From Marinobacter sp. (GTDB lineage Bacteria; Pseudomonadota; Gammaproteobacteria; Pseudomonadales; Oleiphilaceae), in assembly GCF_014359475.1 (NCBI RefSeq), contig NZ_JACIZI010000022.1: DNA of 64,000 nucleotides; one strand, 5' to 3'. This document shows, one piece after another, positions 9,861-12,847 of this stretch. The notes beneath the pieces are model-generated. The model had not been told where the DNA came from. It saw only the letters and a program-made list of their open reading frames with translations, and made no database searches. The translations under genes and the position numbers were made by a program. Every line of letters starts with the position of its first letter. Position 1 is the first letter of the stretch.

Positions 9861-9889
9861 TTGACAGCCCCCGGAGGCTTACTTATTAT
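9861..9889 (+). promoter_or_regulatory. Sigma70 promoter of tRNA-Glu
   Basis: TTGACA-17-TATTAT plus GC-rich discriminator. Confidence 0.8.
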
Positions 9890-9928: not shown

Positions 9929-10004
9929 GTCCCCTTCGTCTAGTGGCCCAGGACTCCGCCCTTTCACGGCGGCAACAGGGGTTCGAACCCCCTAGGGGAC
10001 GCCA
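9929..10004 (+). tRNA. tRNA-Glu(TTC)
   Basis: 76 nt; anticodon arm CCGCC-CTTTCAC-GGCGG; GGTTCGAA T-loop; CCA end. Confidence 0.98.
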
Positions 10005-10018
10005 CTTTTTCCAGCGCC

Positions 10019-10150
10019 TCAACGCCCGTGCCGACCCTCATCGTGGTGATGTCTGGCATCCCTGGCAACGAAAACTCCCACACCAACAAAAAAGCCAACC
10101 ATCAGAACTACGGTTCCGATACCTGCGATAACAACTGCATCCATATACAT
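10019..10150 (-). CDS. ccoM: Small membrane protein resembling cbb3 cytochrome c oxidase subunit CcoM
   Basis: Not in ORF track. 43 aa MYMDAVVIAGIGTVVLMVGFFVGVGVFVARDARHHHDEGRHGR; GGAGG RBS 8 nt upstream; pattern D-x-VVIAG-x2-TV-x-LM...RD matches Pseudomonas CcoM as I recall it; ANR box upstream. Confidence 0.8.
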   Translation of the reverse strand: MYMDAVVIAGIGTVVLMVGFFVGVGVFVARDARHHHDEGRHGR

Positions 10151-10215
10151 GGTCATGCCCTCCGGCGCTGAATGATCTCTACGGTTTCAGGCTACGCCTT
10201 CTGCCCGTCCTCGTA

Positions 10216-10229
10216 TTGACCCAAATCAA
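10216..10229. promoter_or_regulatory. ANR/FNR box, class II position for the ccoM-like gene
   Basis: TTGAC-CCAA-ATCAA vs consensus TTGAT-N4-ATCAA; minus-strand -10 TAGCCT at 10194-10189 places the box centre about 41 bp from a plausible start site. Confidence 0.8.
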
Positions 10230-10375
10230 TTCCGAAACTCACCTTTCAGCGGTTTTCTGTGGCCCGAAACGGGCCATTCATCCGGAATTCAACTGCTTTT
10301 CAGTGCACCAATTCGGGACTCTGCTATAGTCCACATGAGTGTCACAAGGAATGTTTGATACAGAGGTAAGGGAGC

Positions 10376-12847
10376 GTGCCAGAAAATTTCATGATCAGAT
10401 CACCCGGAGCAAGTGAAGAAAAAGGCATGCCAAGACTGTCCGAGCGCCTGCAGCAGTTTCGTTCCGGGTCCCCCCTGTCCTTCCGGCTACTGGCTTATAT
10501 CCTGATATTCAGCTCCCTTTTCACCCTGGTGGCCTCGGCCATACAGATTTACAGCGATTTCCGCCGCGACCTGACGGCCGTTGAAAACCGCATGAAAGTG
10601 GTAGAGACCGGTTACGCTGCCAGCCTGGCTCGAAGTCTCTGGGCGCTGGACCAGCACCTGTTGCAAACCCAGATGGAGGGTATCCTCAGCCTGCCGGATA
10701 TTGTGCACCTGCGCCTGCGCATTCTGCCGGACTCGGAACTGGTCATGGGCAGCATCGAGAGGGGCATCCCGACACGCTCCCACTCCTTTGACCTGACCTA
10801 CAGCAGCAATCGCACTACCTCGAAACTGGGCACCATGACGATCACCACCAGCCTTGAACGGGTTTACAGTGACCTGGAGGATCGGGTGCTCATGGTGCTG
10901 ACGACCCAGTTTCTCAAGACCTTCTTCATTTCCATCCTGATTATCATGATCTTCCAGCACTTTGTAGCCAGGCACCTGACCACCATGGCCAACTATGCGC
11001 GGGAGCTGTCGATCCGCAATCTTTCGCGCCCACTGGTGCTTGACCGGCCAGACAACCAGATCAATCGCACCGACGAGCTGGCCAAAGTCACCGAGGCCAT
11101 CAATCAGATGCGGGAGCGGCTGAATGAAGACATTGTGCGCCAGGAACATGATGCGGAGGAAATCCGTAAGCTGTCCAAAGCCGTTGAGCAGAGTCCGTCC
11201 TCGGTGATGATCTGCGATCGCCAGTGGCGCATTGAGTTCGTCAATCATAAGTTTACGCAGCTAACCGGGTATCACACGGACGATATCACCGGAAAACACC
11301 CCGGAGCCCTCTCCAATGAACAGATCCAGAGCCGGGACAACAATCAGCTGTGGCAGGCCATCCGGCTGCAGGTGCAACGTGTCGGGGTCTGGCAGGGGGA
11401 GATCAACAGCATTCGCAAGAACGGCGAACGGTTCTGGGAACAGCTGATTGTCACACCCATCAGGAACAGCGCCGGCCGGGTTACCAACTATCTGATCCTG
11501 GGCGAGGATATCAGTATCCGTAAACGGTACGAGCAGCAGTTGCTGCGCCAGGCCAACTACGATGTGCTTACCGGCCTGCCGAACCGCATGCTGGCACTGG
11601 ATCGTCTCAAGCTGGCCCTGGCCCAGGCCCGCCGCGAGCGCAGCCTGGTGGGGGTAATGTTCCTCGACCTGGACAACTTCAAGCACATCAATGACACCAT
11701 GGGTCATGATGCCGGAGATGCCCTGCTCACAGAAGCTGCCCGCCGTATTTCCAGCTGCTTGCGGGGAACCAGTACCGTAGCCAGGTTGGGCGGGGACGAA
11801 TTCCTGGTGATTCTGCCCGGCCTGAGCAGCCCTGAAGCCGCCAGTCAGGTGGCCGAACGGATACTGCAGACCTTTGCACCACCTCACCGGCTGAATGACC
11901 AGGAGGTGTTCGTCACGACCAGCATCGGTATTGCCATCTTCCCCACCGACTCGGATAACAGTGGCAACCTGTTGCAGCATGCGGATGCGGCCATGTACCA
12001 GGCCAAGAACAAGGGCAAGAGCGCCTACGAACGATTCACCCCGGAAATGACCGAGGTATCCCATGAGCGCCTGCAGATGGAAACCCGCATGCGACGGGCG
12101 CTGGAGCTGGAAGAGTTTGAGCTGAACTTTCAGCCCATTGTCGACACTGCTACCGGCAAAATCCGCCTGGCGGAAGTATTGCTGCGCTGGAATAACCCCT
12201 CCATGGGTCGGATCATGCCGGACCGCTTCATTCCCCTCGCGGAGGAAACCGGCCTGATCATCCCGATCGGTGCCTGGGTGCTCCAGGAGGCCTGCAAGGC
12301 TGCGATTCACTGGGAGCAGAACCTCGGTGTGGCGCTGAATATTGCTGTCAATGTATCTCCCCGACAGTTCCGTGACCCAGGCTTTATCGAGGTGGTAATG
12401 GGTGCCCTGGAGCAGGCCGGACTCAAAGCAGACCGGCTGGAGCTGGAGATTACCGAGCGGCTGATCCTGGATAATTCCATTGAGACGGCCGACATTCTTA
12501 CCCAGTTGGACGCAGCCGGCATCCGCCTTTCCGTGGATGACTTCGGCACCGGTTATTCAGCCCTGAGCTACCTCAAGAGCTATCCGTTTGATACCCTGAA
12601 GATCGACAAGTCATTTATCGGAGATGTAGTTGAAAAACAGGACGATGCTGCTCTGGTCAGGGCAATCATCAACATGGCCCACAGCCTTGGTCTGACGGTG
12701 GTTGCCGAAGGTGTAGAAACGGAACCTCAAACCCAGTTCCTGGTGCGTCATGGATGTGACTATTCCCAGGGTTATTTCTACGCCCGGCCGGCTCCGGCTT
12801 TGGAATTCGAGCAGTGGCTCAAAACCAACGAACGGGCAACTCCCTGA
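10376..12847 (+). CDS. Membrane-anchored HAMP-PAS-GGDEF-EAL diguanylate cyclase/phosphodiesterase
   Basis: Two TM segments, HAMP-like region, PAS, RLGGDEF, EVLLRW and DDFGTGYS; start codon uncertain (GTG 10376 has an RBS). Confidence 0.92.
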   Translation: MPENFMIRSPGASEEKGMPRLSERLQQFRSGSPLSFRLLAYILIFSSLFTLVASAIQIYSDFRRDLTAVENRMKVVETGYAASLARSLWALDQHLLQTQMEGILSLPDIVHLRLRILPDSELVMGSIERGIPTRSHSFDLTYSSNRTTSKLGTMTITTSLERVYSDLEDRVLMVLTTQFLKTFFISILIIMIFQHFVARHLTTMANYARELSIRNLSRPLVLDRPDNQINRTDELAKVTEAINQMRERLNEDIVRQEHDAEEIRKLSKAVEQSPSSVMICDRQWRIEFVNHKFTQLTGYHTDDITGKHPGALSNEQIQSRDNNQLWQAIRLQVQRVGVWQGEINSIRKNGERFWEQLIVTPIRNSAGRVTNYLILGEDISIRKRYEQQLLRQANYDVLTGLPNRMLALDRLKLALAQARRERSLVGVMFLDLDNFKHINDTMGHDAGDALLTEAARRISSCLRGTSTVARLGGDEFLVILPGLSSPEAASQVAERILQTFAPPHRLNDQEVFVTTSIGIAIFPTDSDNSGNLLQHADAAMYQAKNKGKSAYERFTPEMTEVSHERLQMETRMRRALELEEFELNFQPIVDTATGKIRLAEVLLRWNNPSMGRIMPDRFIPLAEETGLIIPIGAWVLQEACKAAIHWEQNLGVALNIAVNVSPRQFRDPGFIEVVMGALEQAGLKADRLELEITERLILDNSIETADILTQLDAAGIRLSVDDFGTGYSALSYLKSYPFDTLKIDKSFIGDVVEKQDDAALVRAIINMAHSLGLTVVAEGVETEPQTQFLVRHGCDYSQGYFYARPAPALEFEQWLKTNERATP

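Follow-up and report, generated by a model that had tools for sequence, protein, structure and literature searches.

The 64-kb window (the whole stretch of 64,000 nucleotides of Marinobacter DNA analysed here) appears to hold an empty spacer between a tRNA-Glu gene and a gene for a GGDEF-EAL protein, and a 43-residue protein resembling CcoM, a small subunit of cbb3-type cytochrome c oxidases, had been proposed to be encoded in it. The locus therefore raises the question whether this short frame is a genuine ccoM gene, from which promoter it would be read, what can be said about its histidine-rich tail, and how it relates to the low-oxygen RNA PhrS of Pseudomonas, the covariance model of which matches the same nucleotides.

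The reading frame and its promoter

The 43-aa frame was present on the minus strand, with the start codon chosen in the original prediction, and its product reads MYMDAVVIAGIGTVVLMVGFFVGVGVFVARDARHHHDEGRHGR. The GGAGG ribosome binding site at 8 nt and the -10 hexamer TAGCCT were likewise found where the original prediction had placed them (Table 1), and a GGAG-type Shine-Dalgarno sequence stands at the equal position in all Marinobacter ccoM loci. The in-frame ATG 10156, which is the JGI call (45 aa), was considered as an alternative start. Its distance to the Shine-Dalgarno sequence is a mere 2 nt and the codon is TTG in the closest relatives, and 10150 is therefore the likely start; both the CcoM HMM and the homologous PDB chain begin at MYMD/MFVD. 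The description of the gene as hidden did not hold. The 43-aa protein is already in NCBI nr and Marinobacter orthologues have already been named CcoM by NCBI, and the gene is hidden only from an ORF-length filter. UniRef entries still carry the misnomer "ATP-dependent helicase" for Marinobacter orthologues, which was already mentioned in the 2016 CcoM paper (PMC4742706). No canonical terminator was found after the ccoM stop codon, and the sole terminator-like hairpin is located within the CDS and does not exceed chance expectation. We propose that ccoM is a small monocistronic gene.

In gene orientation the palindrome upstream of the frame reads TTGAT-TTGG-GTCAA; it is the same site that had been described as TTGAC-N4-ATCAA, read on the plus strand. 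Its spacing to the -10 hexamer is 21 nt and its centre falls at about -40.5/-41.5 from a transcription start inferred near 10182. The pattern TTGAY-N4-RTCAA has this single match in the 64-kb window as compared to a mean of 0.23 in shuffles, and the box is therefore more than a chance occurrence. Its half-sites are those of the published P. stutzeri ccoM box, TTGAT-N4-gTCAA (PMC4742706), in agreement with the ANR box of P. stutzeri ccoM to which the original prediction had referred. Of 23 ccoM loci, 22 had a box ahead of the gene. In most of the 18 Marinobacter loci (the window's own included) the box begins 79-80 nt before the ATG, and three loci have it at -81 to -89; a conserved GCGTAA(C/T)CTGA block followed 21-22 nt after it. 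The box was also considered as a promoter element of the divergent GGDEF-EAL gene, and this assignment was rejected: it lies about 114 nt from the conserved TATAGT of that gene, and the plus strand has no -10 at the spacing of a class II site. Given its place in a divergent intergenic region, it could nonetheless also serve the GGDEF-EAL gene.

The genome (3.69 Mb in 85 contigs, 58% GC) encodes one Fnr-family regulator (NF008365, 247.6 bits, cutoff 228), which carries the CX2CX5C cluster and an ETVSR recognition helix. Strict FNR-type boxes occur 15 times genome-wide, as compared to about 6 expected. Strict boxes were also observed in this genome at C9:41232 and C5:14232, 19 nt before the Fnr/ANR-like gene and 72 nt before a norC-like cytochrome gene, respectively, which points to an autoregulated regulator and to a regulon with a denitrification branch.

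Some further observations concern the flanking genes. A near-consensus sigma-70 promoter (TTGACA-17-TATTAT, 11/12; 9861-9889, plus strand) precedes tRNA-Glu by 40 nt, and CTTTTTCC follows directly after the tRNA gene. The region downstream of tRNA-Glu is antisense to the tail codons of ccoM, and the two convergent units would therefore overlap or abut. On the other side, the GGDEF-EAL ORF is listed from GTG 10376; its orthologues begin with MQKL(L/S)TRLQRFR..., equivalent to MPRLSERLQQFR, at residues corresponding to MPRLSERLQQF, and the true start is probably ATG 10427. Upstream of this gene there is a conserved CTGCTATAGTC block, and the TATAGT at 10325-10330 (plus strand) looks like its -10.

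Table 1. Features of the ccoM locus and of related loci.
Feature	Position	Strand	Remarks
tRNA-Glu(UUC)	9929..10004	plus	Convergent; 3' end 14 nt from ccoM stop; ARAGORN and Rfam tRNA
ccoM CDS	10019..10150	minus	43 codons and TGA; ATG at 10150, TGA at 10021-10019; ORF listing and translation
Codons 30-43, basic His-rich tail RDARHHHDEGRHGR	10022..10063	minus	Predicted cytosolic
Codons 1-29, acidic MYMD N-terminus and one hydrophobic TM helix	10064..10150	minus	5DJQ_N alignment
Rfam RF01673 (PhrS) match	10066..10185	minus	62.1 bits, gathering cutoff 37; E 1e-14
Shine-Dalgarno GGAGG	10159..10163	minus	8 nt before ATG 10150; read from sequence
-10 hexamer TAGCCT	10189..10194	minus	Genus consensus GTAAYCT
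FNR/ANR-type palindrome TTGATTTGGGTCAA	10216..10229	minus	Class II position, centre about -40.5
PAS-GGDEF-EAL gene	10376..12847	plus	Divergent; NCBIfam GGDEF, PAS and phosphodiesterase matches
ccoM-loss sites	L038 (G004), L039 (G010), L040 (G005), L041 (G008)		Gap between tRNA-Glu and GGDEF-EAL gene
PhrS/CcoM coincidence	Window 10066-10185 (-); L153:1107-1319 (-); L144:623-823 (+)		18 further Pseudomonas/Stutzerimonas loci

Membership in the CcoM family and conservation in Marinobacter

The product matched NF041600, the NCBIfam equivalog model of CcoM, with 57.5 bits (cutoff 40; E 1.4e-15), with model positions 1-34 aligned to residues 3-36 of the 45-aa form, and a six-frame search with the same model resulted in a single CcoM match in the genome (56.5 bits). 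The only PDB match was 5DJQ_N, the CcoM chain of the P. stutzeri Cbb3-1 structure, which aligned without gaps over residues 1-33 (E 3.3e-6). Both matches bear out the proposed identity. Among the entries retrieved by the PDB search, the newer cbb3 structures 9G6B, 8SMR/8SNH, 9G83 and 6XKW contain close CcoN homologues; a CcoM-matching chain was not found in any of them, and 5DJQ is the only entry with a modelled CcoM.

CcoM of P. stutzeri ZoBell is the fourth subunit of Cbb3-1 (5DJQ chain N; Kohlstaedt et al., 2016, PMC4742706). The Marinobacter protein shares with it the single helix (mean hydropathy of residues 5-29, 2.54), the M-[FY]-x-D start, G10, T13 and the R/K30-D31 boundary, which is R30-D31 here, and the two have in common a score above the NF041600 cutoff, a gene located away from ccoNOQP and an upstream TTGAT-N4-GTCAA. 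In the structure a ladder of M17, F20 and F24 contacts CcoN helices VIII/IX, and F24 is replaceable by V or L (PMC4742706). In the alignment to 5DJQ_N, M17 and F20 are kept and the F24 of P. stutzeri is replaced by the allowed V24, while W29 is replaced by Ala; the CcoN of this genome keeps the helix VIII motif W-x2-M-x3-M as SWGGMINGM. The P. stutzeri protein is oriented N-out/C-in with its basic C-terminus in the cytosol (PMC4742706), and the same topology is predicted for Marinobacter CcoM, the sequence of which fits the positive-inside rule. A P. stutzeri ccoM knockout implicated CcoM in assembly or stabilisation of the complex and in anaerobic growth.

The two systems differ in their genomic setting. 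The genome has one ccoN (758 bits), on contig C17, which is followed there by ccoO, ccoQ, ccoP, ccoG and ccoH (Pfam), and ccoM is on contig C15, an orphan location as in P. stutzeri and as originally predicted. Marinobacter thus has one cbb3 operon, with ccoQ, whereas P. stutzeri has two and CcoM was seen in one without ccoQ; the genomic neighbours also differ, being tRNA-Glu and the GGDEF-EAL gene in Marinobacter. An imperfect box, TTGACCTGAGTCAT, precedes ccoN by about 108 nt, and its position is conserved in three other Marinobacter genomes.

Above the model cutoff, ccoM was detected in 17 of 24 same-genus species genomes, with the same box, -10 and synteny, and every one of these of at least 89% completeness has ccoN. 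The order yfcH, tRNA-Glu, ccoM, GGDEF-EAL was constant in the 18 Marinobacter loci, and the GGDEF-EAL gene is thus a conserved neighbour throughout. The core (codons 1-31) had a pairwise dN/dS of about 0.07 across Marinobacter and differed from the nearest relative by 8 synonymous and 1 non-synonymous differences. This strong purifying selection on the core is good, if indirect, evidence of translation. Similarity to CcoM and retention of the ORF in relatives, the two examined points at which the original prediction could have failed, both came out in its favour.

Two other readings of the frame were weighed. A paralogue of CcoQ/FixQ would also be a small, one-helix subunit of the cbb3 oxidase, with a polar tail in the cytosol and some residues in common; the CcoM paper itself notes residues shared by CcoQ and CcoM (PMC4742706), and Pfam FixQ (PF05545) matched the product weakly (16.1 bits, E 0.011). 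This score is below the 29-bit Pfam gathering cutoff, however, the true ccoQ is present separately in the operon with 40.3 bits, and the CcoM model is well above its own cutoff, so that we consider a CcoQ paralogue highly improbable. Even less credible is a fortuitous ORF in the spacer downstream of tRNA-Glu, with a palindrome that serves only the divergent GGDEF-EAL gene; the conservation data in effect refute this reading. The shortness of the ORF, the position of the box in a shared intergenic region and the intact box retained in one Marinobacter genome without ccoM would agree with it, but the low dN/dS of the core, the significant HMM and PDB matches and the fixed box-to-ATG and box-to-(-10) distances speak against it, as do the boxes that precede ccoM in other families with different neighbours.

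Four near-complete Marinobacter genomes with a cbb3 oxidase have lost ccoM: the syntenic site is intact, the CDS is deleted, and a profile search at E up to 10 for a divergent ccoM in these four genomes returned nothing. In one of them (G004) the box, TTGACCTGGATCAA, is intact and no ORF follows it, and another (G005) has a degenerate box and a GGAGGAG Shine-Dalgarno sequence followed by a 5-codon remnant. As these four genomes have kept the oxidase without it, CcoM appears to be accessory or dispensable.

Very probably, then, the locus is the Marinobacter ccoM gene, which gives rise to an Fnr/ANR-activated mRNA for a one-helix, CcoN-bound subunit of the cbb3 oxidase. The points that weigh against this reading are the Ala in place of W29, the length of 43 aa, the loss of the gene from four genomes with a cbb3 oxidase, the divergent setting of the box and the lack of a canonical terminator. 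By homology, the single Fnr/ANR-type regulator would bind the palindrome at about -40.5 when O2 is low and activate the weak sigma-70 promoter of ccoM in the class II manner, and a short leadered mRNA (about 32-nt 5' UTR, strong Shine-Dalgarno sequence) would be translated into the 43-aa protein. CcoM would insert N-out/C-in as one transmembrane helix, pack on CcoN helices VIII/IX through the conserved M17/F20/position-24 ladder, and stabilise the cbb3-type cytochrome c oxidase or help to assemble it, with the basic Lys/Gly/His-rich tail staying in the cytosol. The family to which the locus belongs, ccoM, has been catalogued before, and the tail of this member is specific to its lineage. For the window, the outcome is a correct annotation of a respiratory subunit gene that is easily missed, and of its low-oxygen promoter, which is useful and ordinary.

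The histidine-rich tail

CcoM proteins were published with a length range of 35-39 aa (PMC4742706) and a short basic C-terminus. With 43 aa, as compared to 36 in P. stutzeri, the window's protein falls outside this range, which is a descriptive one from a single paper and no part of the HMM definition; its tail is RDARHHHDEGRHGR, while that of P. stutzeri is RDAHKKS. The tail had been described as longer than is usual for the family, which applies with respect to the Pseudomonas proteins but not within the genus, where most CcoM proteins are longer still (total length 42-53 aa). The segment after D31 had a median of 19 residues in 74 non-chimeric Marinobacter sequences. Contrary to the first description, CcoM is neither "almost exclusively Pseudomonas" nor limited to 35-39 aa; in Marinobacter it carries a 13-24-residue Lys/Gly/His-rich extension that is predicted to be cytosolic, and several lineages have deleted the gene.

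In the window's protein, 4 of the 12 residues after D31 are His (binomial p 4e-4 against the genome background). Across Marinobacter, the 1,329 tail residues comprised 18% Lys, 18% Gly and 16% His, the latter about 5-fold over background, and individual tails contained 0 to 6 His (median 3). Tails in the window's clade are the shortest of all and have the highest density of His; in its closest relatives they end in ...HHHHDGGHGH or ...HHHNDSQHGH. A profile search of 1.84 billion representatives placed the CcoM family in 84 clusters, most of which have short Lys/Arg stubs with 0-2 His as tails; one other clade (MYWDD...) also has His-rich tails. Compared to the nearest relative, the tail showed 4 synonymous and 5 non-synonymous differences, and all three HHH codons were kept through synonymous changes. 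The tail dN/dS within clades was about 0.1-0.2. Judged from these alignments, the tail is a genus-wide, Lys/Gly/His-rich extension of constrained composition that evolves fast. It should be cytosolic, since CcoM would be oriented N-out/C-in by homology to the P. stutzeri protein.

Copper for cbb3 oxidases reaches CuB from the periplasmic side via CcoI, SenC and PccA. This route bears on the suggestion that the His-rich tail serves as a module for binding Cu, Ni or Zn in cbb3 maturation or metal sensing, as a tail predicted to be cytosolic does not fit it. The His enrichment across the genus, the HHH run, which persists in the four closest sequences while the residues around it have turned over, the tail dN/dS below 1 and the His-rich tails of the second, unrelated clade would all agree with metal binding. 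Against it, some Marinobacter tails have no His, no fixed His spacing is conserved, and Lys and Gly show the same enrichment, which points to a disordered anchor of the positive-inside kind; the short tail of P. stutzeri is, moreover, invisible in the crystal (PMC4742706). A module that binds a metal, or a partner, is therefore unlikely in our view, and the originally suggested role in providing copper for oxidase assembly is speculative and somewhat disfavoured.

Relation to the PhrS RNA of Pseudomonas

The Rfam model of PhrS matched the window over its positions 1-109, i.e. the 5' UTR, the Shine-Dalgarno sequence and about the first 25 codons only, and positions 110-203 were skipped. All 18 Marinobacter loci were matched by the model, with 45-105 bits. 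Conversely, the CcoM HMM matched the ORF in the consensus of the PhrS model, MFIDDVVIAGMVTVGLMVVFFAGFG, with 43.2 bits. When species genomes were scanned for the start pattern, at least 120 loci were obtained, and among the matches listed nearly all were from Pseudomonas or Stutzerimonas. In 20 of 20 Pseudomonas/Stutzerimonas loci tested, the full-length PhrS match (146-204 bits) enclosed a CcoM ORF of 36-41 aa at about nt 31-160 of the RNA, and in the tested loci the ANR box started 37-53 nt before the PhrS 5' end. P. aeruginosa was not among the matches listed, and P. paraeruginosa ATCC 9027 and Stutzerimonas stutzeri CLN100 were examined in its place. In P. paraeruginosa ATCC 9027 a 213-nt PhrS (204 bits) holds the 37-aa ORF MFIDEVVLAGILTVGLMVAFFGGVGYFIWKDSHSRKG, which reached 77.6 bits on NF041600 and an E of 3.5e-14 against 5DJQ_N, and the TAATCT-N6 geometry likewise precedes the Rfam-defined PhrS 5' end. 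The ORF of S. stutzeri CLN100 is identical to the crystallised CcoM chain at 34 of 36 residues. By sequence equivalence it is close to certain that Rfam PhrS and NCBIfam CcoM denote one gene.

In P. aeruginosa, PhrS (RF01673) is a 212-nt, ANR-dependent RNA with a translated 37-aa ORF and with pqsR/uof as its target in that species. In reviews the function of the peptide was referred to as "elusive" or "not characterized" (2021, PMC8395346; 2025, PMC12612679). As PhrS is described as ANR-dependent and translated, ANR control and translation of Marinobacter ccoM are strengthened by homology. PhrS is not mentioned in the CcoM paper (PMC4742706), and a statement linking PhrS and CcoM was not found in the literature searched, which did not include subscription journals; the equivalence seems to be no more than implicit, in database annotations that overlap. 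It is about an even call whether PhrS is at root the ccoM messenger, with CcoM as its 37-aa peptide and the 3' riboregulatory part as a Pseudomonas add-on, and whether this is at the same time unrecognised in the literature.

The Marinobacter locus has the promoter type and geometry, the leader, the Shine-Dalgarno sequence and the ORF in common with P. aeruginosa PhrS, but lacks the 3' third, i.e. the GAGCACGCAAGGCA block and the terminator hairpin. No copy of the conserved Pseudomonas block was found in the genome with up to 1 mismatch or in loci L001-L023 with up to 2 mismatches, and the PhrS terminator is likewise missing from the entire genome and from every Marinobacter locus. From these comparisons, the gene with its ANR-type promoter is conserved from Pseudomonas to Marinobacter, with only promoter, leader and coding part as the shared portion. 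The Marinobacter transcript might still be taken for a dual-function RNA like P. aeruginosa PhrS, both a CcoM mRNA and a base-pairing low-oxygen riboregulator, in view of the Rfam scores and of the ANR-type promoter geometry, which is as in Pseudomonas. The match is confined to leader and coding part, however, the 3' block and terminator are missing, the ccoM stop lies 14 nt from the convergent tRNA and leaves no 3' UTR, and third-codon positions vary freely (dS about 1.6), as expected for a purely coding constraint. A riboregulatory function of the Marinobacter transcript is thus very unlikely, and a plain ccoM mRNA remains the preferred reading.

The identity of PhrS and CcoM is the part of this analysis worth passing on, the locus itself being of low interest. 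It provides the peptide of this well-known candidate for a dual-function RNA with a concrete, structurally documented role, and suggests that phrS phenotypes in Pseudomonas be re-examined with the functions of the RNA and of the oxidase subunit separated. Rfam-based pipelines will mislabel the plain ccoM mRNAs of other genera as a regulatory sRNA.

Among the matches listed, three records titled Pantoea sp. (L057), Janthinobacterium sp. (L120) and Leclercia tamurae (L145) contained the Pseudomonas-type ccoM/phrS start pattern. The Leclercia tamurae record is a 7.1-Mb "chromosome", and all three are probably mislabelled or contaminated assemblies and not cases of horizontal transfer. In several Pseudomonas genomes (L117, L119, L081 and L046) the Pseudomonas sRNA P18 (RF01671) was located about 2.3 kb from PhrS/ccoM.
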